Positions 20,003 to 27,511 of a stretch of 64,000 nucleotides of DNA are shown here, piece by piece. The DNA comes from Selenomonadaceae bacterium. Its GTDB lineage: Bacteria > Vulcanimicrobiota > Xenobia > Xenobiales > JADMJV01. Position 1 is the stretch's first letter. Each line of letters begins with the position of its first letter. The position numbers and the translations under genes are program-made. The DNA is taken from assembly GCA_037189585.1 (NCBI GenBank), contig JBBCJA010000018.1:887-64886 (forward strand), in the 5' to 3' direction. The notes under the pieces were generated by a model. It saw only the letters and a list, made by a program, of their open reading frames with translations, did no database searches and had not been told where the DNA came from.

Positions 20003-20608
20003 TTGCCGAAGCCCCCGGACGTGCGGCGAGTTCGAAGGGCGAGAATCTTACTATTTCTGCTACTGGGCACGGGAATCTGTGCCGCAGCGGGATTCGCCTA
20101 TCAGATCTGGCCCAGCCCACGAGAGGCGCTGATCGTCAAGGGAGCTCGAAGCTGCCTGGGCGACATCTACGACTCGGACTACTTCGAGGGAGGGCCTCCT
20201 CCGCGGGGGCGTGGAGCCTGCACCGACGTGGTCTACTGGGCTTATCTACCAACCCTTGACCTTCAATCAGCCGTGGACGAGGACCGCAGGGGGTTGCCCG
20301 AGGCGGCTCGGCTCAAGATCGATCGGAACATCGACTATCGATGGTGCCCGACCTTAATCGGATACTTCCAGCGCCACGCTCTCAGCCTACCCACCGAGGT
20401 CACTTGGCGAACGGTTCTGACCTTTCGCCCGGGCGACGTGATCTTCTACGACGACCACCGAGGGGCGGTCGGACACGTCGGTATCGTCTCAAGCCGATGG
20501 TCTTTTGACGGAAAGCCGCTCCTGATTCACAATCCCGGGCCTCGTGCCGTCGAGGAAAATGCTCTAACTTCGAACAGAATCGTAGGTCACTTCCGACTCA
20601 GAGATTAG
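20003..20608 (+). CDS. Secreted/anchored hypothetical protein (possibly DUF1287-like); non-ATG start
   Basis: N-terminal TM. Conserved C/H residues. Terminator follows. Confidence 0.35.
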   Translation: MPKPPDVRRVRRARILLFLLLGTGICAAAGFAYQIWPSPREALIVKGARSCLGDIYDSDYFEGGPPPRGRGACTDVVYWAYLPTLDLQSAVDEDRRGLPEAARLKIDRNIDYRWCPTLIGYFQRHALSLPTEVTWRTVLTFRPGDVIFYDDHRGAVGHVGIVSSRWSFDGKPLLIHNPGPRAVEENALTSNRIVGHFRLRD

Positions 20609-20640: not shown

Positions 20641-21215
20641 AATTTCCTGAACAGACTTGACAGTTCTTCTCCAAGTCCGTACATTGGACAACGTAGAGTA
20701 ATACCCAGTAGGAAAGTGTAGTCCACCGAAAACGGTTTCACGCCATGTTGAACGCAACGTCACATAATCCGATGCCAAGCCAAGGCTTTCGCTCCGTCCT
20801 TACCGACGGCGGCGTGTCGTCGCTCGGCCACGGCAGGGGACGGAAACTCGGAGGTCGCGCTACCGGCTAGTTCAAAGCAGATAATGCTAAGACGAGCGGT
20901 AGCGCTCATCTCCGAAACAACGTCGGAGGTGGGCGTTTTTCTTTCTCCTCACAACTATCACACCCATGACCTATCGCTCAAATAACGTTCCTACCACGAA
21001 CGAGCAACAGAATAGCTTAGGGCACTCACCCCTCAAGGTCGTGGGGGTGTCCTCCGGGCGAACCTAAAATCGCCAAGTTCTAAGCTCTCGTTCGCGGCCC
21101 GGAGGCCCATGTAATTCGGCCTGGCTGGGGGTGTCCAGGGTCCTCTCCTGGACACCCTCCTAGCCCTCTTATGCCTGGAGTAATACCAATTATGAACTAT
21201 GGACATAGACTTCAT

Positions 21216-21351
21216 GAAGCGGCGGTCTCGCTAGGAGATTCCGGAGGCCTCGCTGGCTGTCGAAGAGCGCTCCCGCTCCGTTAAGGGTGGGCTCTTCGAG
21301 AGCCAACCCGCCTGACCGGAGGTACGGGTGCAAATCCCGTCCGCTTCACCA
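21216..21351 (+). ncRNA. tRNA-like structured RNA element A (candidate Y-RNA-like / tRNA mimic) with encoded CCA
   Basis: 7-bp acceptor GAAGCGG/CCGCTTC, then A-CCA. D-arm-like GTCTC-GCTAGG-GAGAT. T-arm ACGGG-TGCAAAT-CCCGT. The anticodon arm is replaced by a ~23-bp imperfect helix (GGCTGTCGAAGAGC/GCTCTTCGAGAGCC closed by TCCGG-AGGC/GCCT-CCGGA). Confidence 0.45.
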
Positions 21352-21382
21352 TCTCATCTGAGTTCTTTCAAGGAGAAAACTC

Positions 21383-21583
21383 ATGTTGCATCTACGATTC
21401 GAAGGTCGCTCTTACGATATCCCGTCAGAGCAACTACATCTGTCCCAGGCCATCACCGACCACCAGATCCTCGATCGGGTGGCCCGTCACCTCGACGTCG
21501 CGCCGGAGCGACTGCGCCACTACGTGGTCGACCGGCGTCCGAGCGGTGTGGTGATGGTTCGACCCGAGGCCGTCTACGGCTAA
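21383..21583 (+). CDS. 66-aa protein ending in Gly (candidate beta-grasp/Ubl-like?)
   Basis: Strong RBS AGGAGaaaactcATG. ThiS-sized (66 aa). C-terminal ...VYG*. Confidence 0.4.
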   Translation: MLHLRFEGRSYDIPSEQLHLSQAITDHQILDRVARHLDVAPERLRHYVVDRRPSGVVMVRPEAVYG

Positions 21584-21625
21584 ATCGCCCTAAAAATTTG
21601 GTTCGTCTCGAACGCGACCCAACCT

Positions 21626-21715
21626 GAAAAGCTTACATACTAGCTCATCGGTAGAGCGCTCCACACCTAACGGAACGGTTGCGGGTTCGATTCCCGCGTG
21701 TAATCAAAGCTTTTC
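21626..21715 (+). ncRNA. tRNA-like structured RNA element B (candidate Y-RNA-like) closed by a long terminal stem
   Basis: Canonical D-arm TAGCTCATCGGTAGAGC and T-arm GCGGG-TTCGATT-CCCGC. Degenerate anticodon arm. Ends pair as AAAAGCTT-ACAT / GTGT-(AATC)-AAGCTTTT. Confidence 0.4.
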
Positions 21716-21802
21716 TAACTCGCGCGTTCGAAACGAATCTCTAAAGTTGTTGGTCGTCGCGACCTCATCGTGAGAACTTACACACGGATTCCATCCACTT
21801 GA

Positions 21803-23341
<1,539 letters not shown>

Positions 23342-23342
23342 A

Positions 23343-23380
23343 CTTCAGTGGCGCTCGAGCCGTCTCGGGCGCCACTGAAG
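23343..23380 (+). promoter_or_regulatory. Perfect 12-bp inverted repeat hairpin immediately after the rsr-like stop (intra-operon attenuator/processing site?)
   Basis: CTTCAGTGGCGC-(14 nt)-GCGCCACTGAAG starting 2 nt after TAA. No T-run. Confidence 0.5.
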
Positions 23381-23428: not shown

Positions 23429-24256
23429 GTGCTCAATCTCATCCACAAGATAGCTCGGACTGAAGAAGCTCTCGGCAAGGATCTGATCCTGGCCCCGCAC
23501 CCCCTGGGCGGCAAGGTCCGCGTTCGGATCGACGGTCTGCTTCACGAGTTCGTCTCCGACCCGGCCGACTTCGAGGGTTGGGGTCTTTTCACCGCCGCCT
23601 CCGACCGTGATGCCAGAGTGAAAGAGGTGGCGAGCCTGTCCCAGATCTCGAACTACCTCGAGCGCTTGCCCGCCACCCGGATGGTCCTGGTCAGTCCGCG
23701 GAAGGGCAAGTGCTGGAAGGCCCTACCCGCCAACCGTGACGAGTTCGCTCGTCGCTTTCGGCGAAGCGGTCCGCAGGCGCTGCACCTCGTCGAGCGAGGC
23801 CGCGCCTTCGAGACGGTCATCGCGCGCTTTGACGGAGCCAACTTCTGGTACGACAAGGTCGATCGAAAGACCGACCCTACCCTTCCCAACAAGCTGGGCC
23901 GAGCGCTGCGAGCCTTCACCCCGGCCGAGGAGGTTCGCCTGCCGGGCCTGACCCCGGAGATGCGGGACGTGTATCGTCAGATCCACGACCCCAGCTCTCC
24001 CCAGGCCGTGGCCCGCTGCTCCGAAGCACGCCTGCGACGCGCCTTGGAGCAGGGCGGCGGCTTCCTGGAGTCGTTCACCGATTGTGGCGACTTTTGGAAC
24101 ACCCGCTGGACCACCGGCGATGGCGAGACTCACGTGTCGGCCATTGCCAAAAACGACCTGACCGTGGTCAGCGCTGGTATCTGTCTGTCCGGCGAGGACC
24201 AGAAGTTCGATCTGGCCTCTTTGGTGGGCGTGGTCGAAAGACAAGAGGAGTGGTGA
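23429..24256 (+). CDS. Hypothetical protein (275 aa), middle gene of the operon; GTG start with AAAGGAG RBS
   Basis: The ORF-table start at 23348 lies inside the hairpin, so it is trimmed to GTG 23429. No recognisable domain. Confidence 0.45.
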   Translation: MLNLIHKIARTEEALGKDLILAPHPLGGKVRVRIDGLLHEFVSDPADFEGWGLFTAASDRDARVKEVASLSQISNYLERLPATRMVLVSPRKGKCWKALPANRDEFARRFRRSGPQALHLVERGRAFETVIARFDGANFWYDKVDRKTDPTLPNKLGRALRAFTPAEEVRLPGLTPEMRDVYRQIHDPSSPQAVARCSEARLRRALEQGGGFLESFTDCGDFWNTRWTTGDGETHVSAIAKNDLTVVSAGICLSGEDQKFDLASLVGVVERQEEW

Positions 24257-24260
24257 CGCC

Positions 24261-24896
24261 ATGACGTCGACCTATCACGAAGAGCTGTATCGAACTTCGC
24301 AAGCCATGGCGCGCCTGCGCGACACCCGGGTGACCGTGTGTGGCGCGGGCGCTCTGGGTGCCAACCTGGTGGAGAGCCTGGCCCGCACGGGCTTCGCGCG
24401 ACTGAAGGTCATCGACCGCGACCGGGTGGAGGAGCGCAACCTTTCCACCCAGCCGTACCAGATGGACGACGTGGGCGGACACAAGGCTCTGGTCTTGTCT
24501 CATCTGGTCTATCGCGCGGTCGGCCTCGAGATGGAAGCGGCGCGCGCCGAATTGAACGGTCGTAACGTGGCCAAGCTGCTGGCCGGAGGCGACTGGCTGG
24601 TGGACTGCTTCGACAACAGCGCGGCCCGCGCCGCCGTCTCGGCCTATGCCCGTAGCACCGGCACACCGTGCCTGCACTCAGGACTTGCCAATGGCTACGC
24701 CGAGGTCATGTGGGACGAGGTCTACCGGGTTCCGGGTCCGGCCCAGGACGACGTCTGCGACTATCCTCTGGCCCGCAACCTGGTCACCCTGGCGGTCGCC
24801 GTCACCGCGGAGACTCTCATCACCGCCATCTTGACTGGGGAGCGGCGCAATCAGACCGTCACCCTGGCCGACCTCGACATTCAGCCCTACCAGTAA
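24261..24896 (+). CDS. ThiF/MoeB-family E1-like adenylyltransferase (minimal, no CxxC)
   Basis: Rossmann VCGAGALGANLVESLARTGFARLKVIDRDRVEERNLSTQ. DCFDNSAAR motif. TPCLHSG region. Confidence 0.75.
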   Translation: MTSTYHEELYRTSQAMARLRDTRVTVCGAGALGANLVESLARTGFARLKVIDRDRVEERNLSTQPYQMDDVGGHKALVLSHLVYRAVGLEMEAARAELNGRNVAKLLAGGDWLVDCFDNSAARAAVSAYARSTGTPCLHSGLANGYAEVMWDEVYRVPGPAQDDVCDYPLARNLVTLAVAVTAETLITAILTGERRNQTVTLADLDIQPYQ

Positions 24897-24964: not shown

Positions 24965-27511
24965 ATGACATCGACCTCCCCCTTTGGCGAGATCCTCGCC
25001 CCGGCCGGCGACCAGGCCTCTTTGGAAGCAGCTCTGGCCGCTGGTGCCGATGCCGTCTACTTTGGCTTAGACGAGGGTTTCAACGCCCGGGCGCGCGCCT
25101 CCAACTTTCGTATGGAGCGCCTGCCCGAGGTGGTGGCGATGATCCATCGCGCGGGGGCGCGCGCCTATCTAGCCTTGAACACGCTGGTCTTCGAGGAAGA
25201 GCTACCCAAGCTCGAGCCCATTCTGCGCGGTGTGGCCAAGGCCGGGGTGGAGGCCTTGATCGTGCAAGATCCCGCCTTGTGCCTCTTAGCCAAAGCTATC
25301 TGCCCCGAGCTCGAGCTTCACGCCAGCACCCAGATGACCGTCTCCAGCCCCGAGGGAGCAGCCTTCGCCGAGGAGCTCGGAGTCACGCGGGTGGTCGTGC
25401 CGCGCGAACTCTCGATCAACGAGATCCGCACCTTTCGGCAGGGCACCGAGCTGGAACTCGAGACCTTCATCATGGGCGCGCTCTGCGTCTCCTGGAGCGG
25501 TCAGTGCCTCTCCAGCGAAGCCTGGGGCGGACGCTCGGCCAACCGGGGTAAGTGCGCCCAAGCCTGTCGCCTACCCTATGAACTGGTGGTCGACGGAGAG
25601 ATTCGCCCTCTAGGAGATGTCAGTTACCTCCTGAGTCCCCAGGACCTGGCCGGCTTTCGCGCCGTCGAGGACCTGCTTGAGATTGGGGTCCACACCCTCA
25701 AGATCGAGGGGCGACAGAAAGGTCCCGACTACGTCCACCACGCGGTCAGCTCTATGCGACGCTGGGTCGACTCGGTCAAGGAGCATCGTCAGGACCCCAA
25801 GCGCCTGTCCGAGGACCTGCGCGATCTGACCATCGTCTATTCGCGCGGCTTCGGAGACGGATTCTTAGCCGGAAGCGATCACCAGACCTTAGTCGACGGA
25901 CGCACCCCTCGCCACCGCGGACTGTTCCTGGGCACCGTGGTCGACGTGGTCAAGAACAAGGTCATCGTGGACCCCACGCCCCTTCCCGTGCCCCAATCTC
26001 CCGGCACGGTCTCCTCTCCCCTCCCTCCTCTAGGCGGTGTCGGCGAGGCGGCTTCCGGCGTGCCTCCGGCTCCCTTAAAGCCCGAGGCCGGGATGGGCGT
26101 GGTCTTTTCCCAGGGCGATGAGCAAGAGCACGAGCAAGGTGGACCGATCTTTCGCGTCGACCAAAGCCTGGGCGACTGGGCTCTCACCTTCGGGCGTCCA
26201 GGACCGGACCTGCGCAAAGTGCGCAAAGGCGCCCGAGTCTATGTGACCAGCGACCCCAAGCTTGTGGTTAAAAGAATGGAGACGCCTCACTGCCGCATCC
26301 CCCTGCGCCTGGAGGTTCAAGGCAAGGAAGGCGAGCTACTCACCGTACGGGCCAACGCTCAAGGCTTCGAGGCCGAATCGGAAAGCGCGGTCGCTCTGCA
26401 GCCATCGCAAAATCGCGAATTGACCCGCGAGATCTTGACCGAAAACTTAGGGGCCCTGGGCGGAACCCCGTTTCACCTGGTTGAGATAGAGCTCGATCTT
26501 CAACCCGGTCTTTTTCTCCCTTTAGCCAACCTGCGCGAAATCCGGCGCGACATCGTGGAGCAGCTCGAGCCCTGGATCCTCGAGGGAAGCGGGCGTCGGG
26601 TGCGTAGCGCCGGCCAGCTGGAGAGCCTACGCCGGCCGACCGAACCCCGACCCTCCGACACCAAGCCCACCCTGGTCGCCTTGTGTCGCACGATGGAGCA
26701 GCTGGAGGCGGCGATCTCAAGCGGCCTGGAAGAGGTCGAGCTCGACTGGATGGAGCTCGTCGCGTTAAACGCCGCCGTCGATCGAGCGCGCGAAGCCGGT
26801 TTAAAGGTCGGACTTGCCACCGTCCGTATTCAAAAGCCGGGCGAGCAGGTTTACGACAGGCGTCTGGAGCGTTTGAAGCCCGACTCGGTCCTGCTGCGGC
26901 ACTGGGGCGGGGTCATGCACTTTCGAGAGCTCCAAGACCGGCCAGTTCTGCATGGCGACTTTTCCCTCAACGTCACCAACTCTTTGACCGCCAACCACCT
27001 ACTACGCATGGGCTTGGAAACCGTCACCGCCTCCCACGACCTGGACAAGAACCAGTTGATGGCGCTCTTGAAAGCCGTCGACCCCGCGCGAGTGGCAGTG
27101 ACCGTGCATCATCACATTCCCACTTTTCACACCGAGCACTGCGTCTACTCTCATCTGTTGAGCCAGGGACGCGACTTCCGCAGCTGCGGCCGTCCCTGCG
27201 AAGCCCACCAGGTCTCGCTCAAAGACCGGGTCGGGCTAGAGCACCCGGTGATCGTAGACGTGGGATGTCGCAACACAGTCTTCAACGCTCTAGCTCAGAG
27301 CGGCGCGTTTCTGATGTCCGATCTGGTCCAACTGGGAGTGCGCAGGTTCCGCCTCGAGTTCGTGCGAGAAAGCCGAGAGGAAACACAACGCGTGCTGCGA
27401 GGGTACGGCGAGCTTCTGCGCGGGCAGATCTCGATCGCCGAACTGATCTCTCGCCTTCAGGTGATCGAACAGTTCGGCGTGACCCGAGGAACCATGCAGC
27501 TCTTGGGTTAA
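24965..27511 (+). CDS. Peptidase U32 family protein (RlhA/YdcP-like) with long C-terminal extension
   Basis: U32 signature region (TFIMGALCVSWSGQCL...KIEGRQKGPDYV). Start at MTSTSPF. The ORF-table N-extension is rejected. Confidence 0.7.
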   Translation: MTSTSPFGEILAPAGDQASLEAALAAGADAVYFGLDEGFNARARASNFRMERLPEVVAMIHRAGARAYLALNTLVFEEELPKLEPILRGVAKAGVEALIVQDPALCLLAKAICPELELHASTQMTVSSPEGAAFAEELGVTRVVVPRELSINEIRTFRQGTELELETFIMGALCVSWSGQCLSSEAWGGRSANRGKCAQACRLPYELVVDGEIRPLGDVSYLLSPQDLAGFRAVEDLLEIGVHTLKIEGRQKGPDYVHHAVSSMRRWVDSVKEHRQDPKRLSEDLRDLTIVYSRGFGDGFLAGSDHQTLVDGRTPRHRGLFLGTVVDVVKNKVIVDPTPLPVPQSPGTVSSPLPPLGGVGEAASGVPPAPLKPEAGMGVVFSQGDEQEHEQGGPIFRVDQSLGDWALTFGRPGPDLRKVRKGARVYVTSDPKLVVKRMETPHCRIPLRLEVQGKEGELLTVRANAQGFEAESESAVALQPSQNRELTREILTENLGALGGTPFHLVEIELDLQPGLFLPLANLREIRRDIVEQLEPWILEGSGRRVRSAGQLESLRRPTEPRPSDTKPTLVALCRTMEQLEAAISSGLEEVELDWMELVALNAAVDRAREAGLKVGLATVRIQKPGEQVYDRRLERLKPDSVLLRHWGGVMHFRELQDRPVLHGDFSLNVTNSLTANHLLRMGLETVTASHDLDKNQLMALLKAVDPARVAVTVHHHIPTFHTEHCVYSHLLSQGRDFRSCGRPCEAHQVSLKDRVGLEHPVIVDVGCRNTVFNALAQSGAFLMSDLVQLGVRRFRLEFVRESREETQRVLRGYGELLRGQISIAELISRLQVIEQFGVTRGTMQLLG

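Follow-up and report, generated by a model that had tools for sequence, protein, structure and literature searches.

What does a short open reading frame (ORF) that ends in a glycine codon encode when it lies between two tRNA-like elements and upstream of a gene for an E1-like enzyme? The question was raised by a first-pass annotation of the window, i.e., the whole stretch of 64,000 nucleotides analysed here, which stems from a Selenomonadaceae bacterium (assembly GCA_037189585.1, contig JBBCJA010000018.1, positions 887 to 64,886; GTDB lineage Vulcanimicrobiota, Xenobia). The annotation pointed to a 66-codon ORF at 21383-21583, hereafter Ubl66, as a possible ThiS-, MoaD- or ubiquitin-like (Ubl) partner of the E1-like protein, and considered a leader peptide or a spurious ORF equally conceivable. 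The analysis presented here indicates that Ubl66 is a genuine gene in a conserved cluster, where it is followed by genes for a Ro60-like protein of ~480 amino acids (aa), a protein of ~275 aa, termed X, and a ThiF homologue of ~211 aa. With moderate confidence, we favor the reading that Ubl66 is an E1-activated ubiquitin-like modifier that acts on or with a Ro60-like ribonucleoprotein (RNP).

A conserved small protein with an exposed glycine

The gene and its ribosome-binding site are located as follows:

21371-21375, plus strand: Shine-Dalgarno sequence AGGAG, 7 nt before the ATG (sequence; orthologous loci)
21383-21583, plus strand: Ubl66 gene, encoding a putative ubiquitin-like (β-grasp-like) protein with the tail RPEAVYG-COOH (homologues, coding signal, AlphaFold)

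The ORF extends from an ATG at 21383 to a stop codon at 21581-21583, and its 66-aa product, given in the ORF list as MLHLRFEGRSYDIPSEQLHLSQAITDHQILDRVARHLDVAPERLRHYVVDRRPSGVVMVRPEAVYG, starts with MLHLRFEGRSYDI and ends in RPEAVYG. The AGGAG ribosome-binding site and the terminal VYG-stop described earlier are both present in the sequence, and the proposed location between two tRNA-like elements and upstream of an E1-like gene (here 2.7 kb downstream of Ubl66) agrees with Rfam, RNA folding and the Pfam ThiF match. Among 5.8 billion proteins searched, 580 homologues were found at E ≤ 0.01, almost all of them 66 aa long, and a scan of one genome per species found relatives encoded by 453 of 185,579 species genomes. 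Carriers among the 80 loci kept are mostly Cyanobacteriota, besides several window-like metagenome-assembled genomes (MAGs) of Eremiobacterota/Vulcanimicrobiota/Xenobia and one Burkholderiales MAG. An alignment of 31 members, which reaches 53% identity, contains 18 invariant columns, including H3, R5, E7-G8-R9-S10, D50-R51-R52-P53 and the final R-P-E-A-V-Y-G, so that three motifs stand out: HxRxEGRS at the N-terminus, DRRP, and RPEAVYG. AVYG directly precedes the stop codon in all 86 locus copies and in 120 of 120 proteins among the matches listed. Conservation of the ORF and its C-terminal Gly in orthologous loci, which had been suggested as a check, is total: all 206 free copies inspected end in RPEAVYG followed by stop, leaving an exposed Gly tail with a free carboxylate, as is characteristic of Ubl modifiers.

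Short as it is, and flanked by two structured RNAs, the ORF might be suspected to be a leader peptide, a regulatory upstream ORF or a chance ORF inside a region of non-coding RNA (ncRNA). The probability of this explanation is practically nil: the 580 homologues have a fixed length, the predicted fold is confident, and the same domain is found fused in frame to another protein (see below). Moreover, amino acids are conserved amid synonymous drift, as the variable columns of 79 unique coding sequences fall on codon positions 1, 2 and 3 in 45, 27 and 65 of 66 codons, respectively, and each invariant residue of the tail is specified by two to four different synonymous codons. All three stop codons are represented, the start codon is ATG in 81 of 81 loci, and an SD-like motif precedes it in 78 of these. 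Because ORF and terminal Gly are kept without exception, amid synonymous drift, the leader peptide or spurious ORF is rejected. Judged by these comparisons, Ubl66 is a real, highly conserved gene under strong purifying selection.

The cluster is conserved in Cyanobacteriota, Eremiobacterota/Vulcanimicrobiota, Armatimonadota and high-GC metagenome contigs, and the gene order given above recurs in Nostocales, in a window-like MAG and in the latter two groups. Neighbors were counted in 63 loci with at least 7.5 kb of sequence downstream of Ubl66, considering genes within the fetched flank (8 kb): the Ro60-like gene is present in 59, X in 52 and ThiF in 47 of them. X and ThiF are always adjacent, with X upstream and a median gap of 27 nt, while the median gaps from Ubl66 to the Ro60-like gene (1.75 kb) and from there to X (1.86 kb) are wider and, in cyanobacteria, filled with RNAs.

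A divergent Ro60 and its fusions to the small protein

The gene that follows Ubl66 in the window, and a paralogue found in other loci, are:

21878-23341, plus strand: divergent Ro60/TROVE and vWA protein, 487 aa, with an intact metal ion-dependent adhesion site (MIDAS), assigned by family profile
L016:9884 onward, L033, L050, L089:5674-8043 and L090:5057-7285: second Ro60-like paralogue

The Ro60-like family comprises 946 related clusters in a HMMER scan of 1.84 billion representatives. Searches with the single sequence or a 16-member profile failed or remained marginal, and only a profile of 47 diverse members, taken from 50%-identity representatives, reached Ro60: it matches human RO60 (9nen, E = 4.8e-16), a phage TROVE protein (9l5y, E = 8.9e-14), Xenopus Ro60 (E = 2.5e-11) and Rsr of D. 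radiodurans (E = 1.7e-7). These matches cover residues 23-431 of the query, and the match to the phage TROVE protein, which is from a Thermus phage, covers residues 23-392. The Pfam TROVE model is not reached by the protein, its vWA matches are weak, and vWA_Ro60 stays below threshold. Since the profile matches RO60 and Rsr structures, and since the MIDAS residues D300, S302, S304, T362 and D386 are invariant in the 47 members, the ~480-aa protein is, by homology, a divergent Ro60 with a TROVE ring and a vWA/MIDAS domain.

A direct connection between the two proteins is provided by gene fusions, as the Ubl66 profile matches the N-termini of several Ro60-like proteins, Gly first. In P0252, which is found on two independent phage-like contigs with a tRNA array, ...MRPEASWG-AVTT- is followed by the Ro60 N-terminus; P0280 reads ...LRPDAKLG-ADDED...; and in a 600-aa protein at locus L096, a complete Ubl domain (63.5 bits) is joined at RPEAVFG|LFRRRR to a linker of 24 aa, which leads into the Ro60-like portion. 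A diverged second copy at L091 (P0316) retains this junction. On its own, the L091 copy was rejected as evidence, as its contig has frameshifts, and it is accepted here because the clean paralogous contig L096 has the same junction. By the Rosetta-stone argument, such fusions imply that the small protein works with the Ro60-like protein.

Further variants of the Ro60-like protein were observed. The second paralogue carries a divergent N-terminal Ubl-like domain with the motif D[IV]GDLS[TS]D and no Gly tail, followed by a repetitive linker of 150-250 aa rich in Leu, Arg and Gly, and, in several lineages, coexists with free Ubl, X and ThiF. The phage-like contigs L086 (1-9147) and L087, which encode a Ubl-Ro60 fusion, also carry seven tRNA genes, HNH and NUDIX. 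On L088, a phage-like 8-kb contig, the fusion is accompanied by thymidine kinase and an X homologue, with no recognisable ThiF on this contig; the gene in the ThiF position encodes 221 aa and has no family match. An intein with a LAGLIDADG endonuclease domain splits P0256, a Ro60-like relative of 901 aa.

The association with Ro60 might also be explained if Ubl66 were never activated and instead served as a non-covalent RNP subunit, i.e., as a small TGS- or Ubl-like adaptor on the Ro60-like protein or on a tRNA-like RNA. An acidic residue or the C-terminal carboxylate could then sit at the vWA MIDAS, as Ubl domains do with midasin, and the substrate of the ThiF homologue would be RNA or some other molecule, in the way that TcdA acts on t6A in tRNA. 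Such a subunit would agree with the invariant MIDAS motif, with the tight linkage of the gene to the Ro60-like gene and the Y-like RNAs, and with fusions that include the long-linker paralogues without a Gly tail (P0253, P0266, P0283, P0286, P0287). Many invariant Arg residues (R5, R9, R51, R52, R60) could bind RNA, one Ubl66 member was automatically named TGS domain-containing, and no ThiF is seen in the available sequence of the phage-like contigs that carry the fusion. However, docking does not require that every free copy stops exactly after Gly, as it does in 206 of 206 cases, and together with the enzymes considered next this makes a purely non-covalent role, the chief rival of the modifier reading, rather unlikely.

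The E1-like enzyme, protein X and a JAB peptidase

Two adjacent genes complete the cluster in the window:

23429-24256, plus strand: protein X, 275 aa from a GTG at 23429 (also open from a GTG at 23348; homologues, AlphaFold, Foldseek)
24261-24896, plus strand: minimal ThiF/E1-family adenylyltransferase, 211 aa (Pfam ThiF, E = 2.6e-29)

In the ThiF homologue, GxGxxG, D52, K75, D115/D118/N119, R123, C137 and C166 are invariant and the ATP/Mg residues intact, so that an E1-type enzyme with an intact active site, as expected for a Ubl modifier, is co-encoded within 8 kb in 47 of the 63 loci. The closest NCBIfam models are ThiF equivalogs (PRK08644, E = 5.8e-24), all below cut-off, and PADLOC E1-E2 models match the ThiF domain at 1e-13 to 1e-15. 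Its solved relatives are nearly tied, with TcdA (3e-14) followed by Uba1 (6e-14), Uba4 (9e-13) and MccB (1e-12), and UBA7 among them as well. That TcdA ranks first would suit a non-covalent Ubl66, but its lead over Uba1, Uba4 and MccB is negligible.

Protein X, which probably starts at the GTG at 23429, has 914 homologues of ~275 aa, none of them with a Pfam domain. Its AlphaFold model (predicted local distance difference test, pLDDT, 82.5) consists of an N-terminal helix, β-barrels and a C-terminal domain of helix, four strands, loop and helix. In Foldseek, the barrels match the oligonucleotide/oligosaccharide-binding (OB) fold of IF1 and S17 with a probability of 0.99, and the OB fold dominates the search with the whole protein. 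X has a single invariant Cys, which is part of the motif SAGICLSGxDxxFDLxSLVGV and located in the loop after the four-strand meander and before the helix, and no nucleotide-binding motif. The layout of the C-terminal domain and the "GICL" motif resemble those of E2 enzymes, but membership in this family is unsupported by Pfam or hhalign. A solitary X homologue is encoded beside a sigma-54 activator in a gammaproteobacterial MAG (L092:9001-9849), where the genes called in the 9 kb to each side include no ThiF, Ubl or Ro60-like gene.

At four places, L091, L096, L097 and one other, the gene between X and ThiF encodes a Prok-JAB peptidase (PF14464) with intact HTHP..S..D / H-x-H...S..D motif. The JAB family of this subclade has 156 members, and the arrangement was found in three of three contexts looked up. 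JAB occurs with a fused Ubl in L096, where processing at Gly is plausible because of the fusion, and with a free Ubl ending in RPEAVFG-stop in L097. As the L097 Ubl is free and already mature, JAB would act there in deconjugation, which implies conjugation. An isopeptidase beside the E1, even where the Ubl is already free, and the co-conservation of an E1-family enzyme and a Cys-bearing partner across phyla both speak against a non-covalent subunit. Near JAB-type clusters, a LigT/2',5'-RNA-ligase-like 2H phosphoesterase (L097:1666-2316) and RtcB with a DEAD-box helicase (ERZ1426840) were noted.

A small protein with a C-terminal Gly and a ThiF-family partner might likewise be a sulfur carrier of the ThiS/MoaD/TtuB type, which ThiF would convert to a thiocarboxylate for the thiolation of tRNA-like RNAs, possibly by X. 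TtuB/TtuC and Urm1/Uba4 set a precedent, since they act in tRNA thiolation, and RNAs with T-arms are encoded right beside the gene. We nevertheless regard a sulfur carrier as very improbable: the terminus is invariably Tyr-Gly and not Gly-Gly, the cluster contains no rhodanese, cysteine desulfurase or PP-loop ATPase, the 31 members give no Pfam ThiS or MoaD signal, X combines a single invariant Cys with the lack of a nucleotide-binding motif, and the Ro60 fusion and JAB fit conjugation better. Neither the window cluster nor the related loci contain enzymes for thiazole, molybdopterin or other sulfur insertion, or sulfurtransferases.

Structured RNAs beside the gene

The RNAs on either side of Ubl66, and a class of related RNAs in other genomes, are:

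21216-21351, plus strand: tRNA-shaped ncRNA (fold with a minimum free energy of -71.1 kcal/mol, z = -4.29, 0 of 200 shuffles as good)
21600-21746, plus strand: Y-RNA-like ncRNA (Rfam tRNA match at 21634-21703, 33.8 bits, E = 6.7e-05; fold)
L001:14376-14601, L003, L058:1790-2018 and L076:13687-13910, outside the window: rRNA-like handle RNAs (Rfam LSU)

The upstream RNA has a 7-bp acceptor stem (GAAGCGG/CCGCUUC), a D-arm, a greatly extended anticodon arm, a T-arm (ACGGG-UGCAAAU-CCCGU) and an encoded ACCA 3' end. Its 3' half is kept in the related locus L005, and neither ARAGORN nor Rfam calls it. The downstream RNA (from about 21600) folds into an outer stem, an internal loop and an inner stem, followed by D-, anticodon- and T-like arms; in other words, a long closing stem with a conserved internal loop, the "handle" (...GCGACCCAACCUGAAAAGCUUACAUAC ... 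AAGCUUUUCUAACUCGCGC...), bears a tRNA-like module. ARAGORN does not call this element a tRNA.

The handle is common to the intergenic RNAs of the cluster, with CGYGCCCYAAC-(stem)-GCYUACAUAC on its 5' side and (stem)-AACUUGCRCG on its 3' side. In 86 loci (1.2 Mb), its 9-nt core occurs 311 times on the gene strand vs. four times on the other strand, and 69 of these loci have a handle at most 400 nt upstream or 500 nt downstream of the Ubl66 gene, with up to six per locus. Both helices covary among 128 unique handles (e.g., CG 74/UA 43 and AU 60/GC 40). The modules vary and include tRNA-like domains with different anticodon-like loops, bare stem-loops and rRNA-like modules. The features that define Y RNAs, i.e., a location adjacent to the Ro60 gene, a long stem with a conserved loop and a variable module, recur here in the folds, the strand bias and the covariation, and the tRNA-like elements are accordingly Y-RNA-like, predicted partners of the Ro60-like protein. 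tRNA-like matches also accompany the cluster in Armatimonadota, high-GC contigs and JAB-type loci.

Two elaborations of the handle RNAs were seen in cyanobacteria. In 33-40 of 85 loci, the module contains the sarcin-ricin-loop sequence AGUACGAGAGGA and a near copy of the L11/GTPase-center region of 23S rRNA (Rfam LSU 1093-1148, 55.9 bits), and looks like a structured mimic of two ribosomal sites that are contacted by translation factors and ribotoxins. In Nostoc, the counterpart of the window's upstream RNA (L001:9757-9965) has an outer tRNA-like frame in which the anticodon arm is replaced by a nested, complete handle RNA that bears a tRNA-like module of its own.

Weighing the modifier reading

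How well does the predicted structure of Ubl66 agree with a modifier? An AlphaFold2 model based on the 31-sequence alignment is confident (pLDDT 92.4, predicted template modeling score 0.78), and places strands at residues 2-6, 9-13, 47-51 and 57-61, the main helix at 26-37, and short helices at 15-18 and 41-44. The first two strands account for the β-strand start expected from the sequence. Residues 62-66 form a free tail after the last strand, modeled with less confidence (pLDDT ~72). This β-β-α-β-β order with a free five-residue tail has the look of a minimal β-grasp, as in ThiS, SAMP2 or protein G B1. Faint hints in the same direction come from Pfam, where the Ubl region of USP7 is matched below threshold (E = 0.0078, 16 bits vs. 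a 27-bit cut-off), and from the automatic UniProt names of three members ("Ubiquitin-like domain-containing", "TGS domain-containing"). Of the β-grasp idea raised earlier, the confident model stands, whereas no supporting match was obtained with Foldseek, hhalign or Pfam; since fold and profile searches found no match, the fold is rated as compatible with β-grasp but unconfirmed. The proposed partnership with the E1 is strongly supported by comparison, i.e., by the co-conservation of ThiF across phyla and by the subclade with a Prok-JAB peptidase beside the E1. Size and terminal Gly agree with a ThiS/MoaD/Ubl-like protein, and the Tyr-Gly end, in place of the Gly-Gly of ThiS and MoaD, does not.

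A number of results weigh against an E1-activated modifier. Foldseek with the model yielded a best E of 1.1 in the PDB (TM-score ≤ 0.44; scattered PB1, parkin/ubiquitin and POTRA matches) and of 0.58 in BFVD, with TM-scores ≤ 0.51 over both, the family profile matched no PDB sequence below E = 0.48, and a Pfam scan of the 31 members at E ≤ 10 gave no ThiS, ubiquitin or TGS match. When the family was compared by hhalign with ten known Ubl sequences and five non-Ubl controls, the probabilities for ubiquitin, NEDD8, SUMO, ThiS, MoaD, Urm1, SAMP1/2, UFM1 and GABARAP were below 2% and no better than those of the controls. No structural or profile search has confirmed the β-grasp fold. The penultimate residue is Tyr, not Gly, and the aromatic-Gly motif is conserved in the fusions, although it is no free C-terminus there, so that the tail could have a docking role. 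As for the enzymes, the ThiF homologue has NLSTQ, with the Arg replaced, where ThiF and MoeB have NLxRQ, and its best solved relative, by a hair, is TcdA, which acts on tRNA without a Ubl. X is not recognisably an E2: Pfam found no Prok-E2 or other match in homologues from four clades, and hhalign of the C-terminal domain with three E2s aligned only AGICLSG/GSICLDIL (probability 0.6%). JAB is absent from the window cluster and from 90 of 91 loci scanned. The E1 gene never adjoins Ubl66, being 2.7 kb away in the window and up to ~7 kb elsewhere, and the tightest linkage of Ubl66 is to the RNAs and the Ro60-like gene (59 of 63 loci, plus fusions). NCBIfam and PADLOC gave no match for Ubl66, the Ro60-like protein or X. 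The tight linkage of Ubl66 to the Ro60-like gene had been overlooked in the first-pass annotation, as had the Ro60 identity of the gene between ORF and E1, and the nature of the tRNA-like elements as Y-RNA-like partners of its product.

Proposed function and implications

By analogy, Ubl66, E1, the Cys-bearing partner and JAB together would make up the toolkit of prokaryotic ubiquitin-like conjugation systems. If Ubl66 is an E1-activated modifier, the ThiF homologue would adenylate the carboxylate of Gly66, and the activated protein would pass to a conserved Cys, either C166 of ThiF or the Cys of X; E2s in bacterial Ubl operons sit directly upstream of the E1, which is the position held by X here. 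Ubl66 would then be joined to an amine group on its target. The Ro60-like protein itself is the likeliest candidate for this target or partner, because it is fused Gly-first to the Ubl in other lineages, with JAB beside the E1. The handle of the Y-like RNAs would be bound by its ring, their variable modules are predicted to imitate tRNAs, and attachment of Ubl66 would switch the state of the RNP, plausibly upon damage to translation RNAs.

Two bolder proposals build on the RNAs. The cluster might be a surveillance system, in which handle-borne decoy RNAs (mimics of tRNA, anticodon stem-loops, the sarcin-ricin loop and the GTPase center) report an attack on translation via Ubl and E1, and the attackers sensed would be ribotoxins, anticodon nucleases or phage factors; we consider this a long shot. 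In a radical version, the E1-activated Gly66 could be transferred to the encoded ACCA 3' end of the upstream tRNA-shaped RNA, such that a protein would be "charged" onto a tRNA mimic. The little probability left over by the readings above falls to unforeseen chemistry, this transfer included.

To our knowledge, bacterial Ubl conjugation is known to date from cofactor sulfur chemistry or from anti-phage defense that acts on proteins. Bacterial Ro60/Y-RNA particles are tied to RNA decay and RNA repair. The cluster joins both fields, as a Gly-ended Ubl, an E1 and sometimes JAB are tied to a Ro60 homologue and to mimics of tRNA and, in cyanobacteria, of rRNA. In the literature searched, i.e., apart from a 2016 survey of RNA-repair systems in Nucleic Acids Research, there is no description of a Ro60-Ubl-E1 association or of rRNA-mimicking handle RNAs. 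A cluster joining a Ubl/E1 pair, a Ro60-type protein and tRNA-mimicking ncRNAs is apparently undescribed in bacteria, and as a whole it may be a new kind of system. Should Ubl66 indeed modify the Ro60-like particle, it would, as far as known, be the first case in which Ubl modification is linked to a bacterial RNA-quality-control RNP, and would offer a way to test what Ro60/Y RNA systems sense. Experiments are feasible, as Nostoc strains and other cyanobacteria that carry the system can be cultured.

Further features of the locus

Upstream of the cluster, the region is closed by a strong terminator-like hairpin on the plus strand (20901-20947; 15 pairs, then a T run), and no feature was assigned to the ~270 nt between this terminator and the first RNA (20950-21215). 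A DUF1287/CHAP gene at 20003-20608 was considered as a deconjugating peptidase and rejected, as an N-terminal hydrophobic segment suggests export and the gene is absent from the cyanobacterial and Armatimonadota clusters listed. Directly after ThiF, a peptidase-U32 gene is present in the window (24968-27511) and in its close relative (L005:13456-16011), whereas cyanobacteria have no such gene at this position. The U32 family includes tRNA/rRNA hydroxylation factors; the link to the cluster may be coincidental synteny. Cyanobacteria have two extra genes between Ubl66 and the Ro60-like gene, neither of which occurs in the window: one encodes a 241-aa protein with no family match (L001:10470-11195; 53 loci), the other a 60-aa protein with a C-terminal SEC-C-like Cys motif (L001:11398-11580; 35 loci).

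Comparison with known systems

Prokaryotic Ubl conjugation operons, e.g., Bil/Bub and CBASS with Cap2/Cap3, combine a Ubl with E1-like, E2-like and JAB proteins. The cluster shares with them a small Gly-ended protein, a ThiF-family E1, which is matched by the PADLOC E1-E2 models, a Cys-bearing protein encoded directly upstream of the E1 and, in a subclade, Prok-JAB. It differs in lacking a recognisable E2, in the place of which X combines IF1-like OB fold(s) with a novel Cys domain, in a window version without JAB, in a single-domain Ubl with a Tyr-Gly end, and in having at its center a Ro60 homologue with arrays of structured RNAs, which are not known from any of these operons. With ThiS-ThiF and MoaD-MoeB, Ubl66 and its partner, which comes closest to ThiF-type models (PRK08644, below cut-off), have in common the length of 66 aa, the C-terminal Gly and the β-β-α-β-β layout. 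Unlike these pairs, they feature the Tyr-Gly end and a partner of only 211 aa without the NLxRQ arginine, with no thiamin or molybdopterin genes nearby and no sequence or profile similarity of the small protein.

A single terminal Gly after an aromatic or hydrophobic residue is found in ATG8/GABARAP, ATG12 and UFM1, which use non-canonical E1s (Atg7, UBA5); mature GABARAP ends in ...ESVYG, compared to ...EAVYG here, and a compact E1 without a separate Cys domain is a further parallel. In contrast to ATG8 and UFM1, the present system is bacterial and has no lipid or UFL1-type machinery, and homology is not detectable (hhalign 0.8% for GABARAP, 0.5% for UFM1). The MIDAS domain of midasin (Rea1) binds the Ubl domains of Ytm1 and Rsa4, and by analogy only, the cluster would likewise pair a vWA/MIDAS domain, here with invariant MIDAS, with ubiquitin-like partners, which are sometimes part of the same polypeptide; unlike midasin, it contains no AAA+ motor. 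TcdA/CsdL, the E1-like tRNA t6A dehydratase and top solved relative of the ThiF homologue (E = 3e-14), acts on tRNA, for which the tRNA-like RNAs are a counterpart here, but works without a Ubl, whereas a Gly-ended small protein and, in a subclade, JAB are co-conserved in the cluster.

The closest parallel for the RNAs and their predicted partner is bacterial Ro60 (Rsr) with Y RNAs such as YrlA (Chen et al., 2014; PMC4201824). Both systems place a TROVE and vWA protein beside modular ncRNAs, in which a long stem with an internal loop carries a tRNA-like domain with D- and T-arms. However, the Ro60-like protein of the cluster is too divergent for Pfam TROVE, the handle of the RNAs reads GCCCYAAC...GCUUACAUAC / AGC...AACUUGC in place of the published YrlA motif GNCGAAN0-1G (PMC4201824), up to six RNAs with different modules occur per locus, and Ubl, E1 and X take the place of RtcB, RtcA or PNPase as partners. 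Taken together, Ubl66 would work like a prokaryotic Ubl/E1 pair, albeit without sequence similarity to any Ubl family, a Gly-Gly end, a recognisable E2 or, in the window, JAB, while its context is, by protein profile and RNA architecture, that of a Ro60/Y-RNA particle, which has diverged in both its protein and its RNA.

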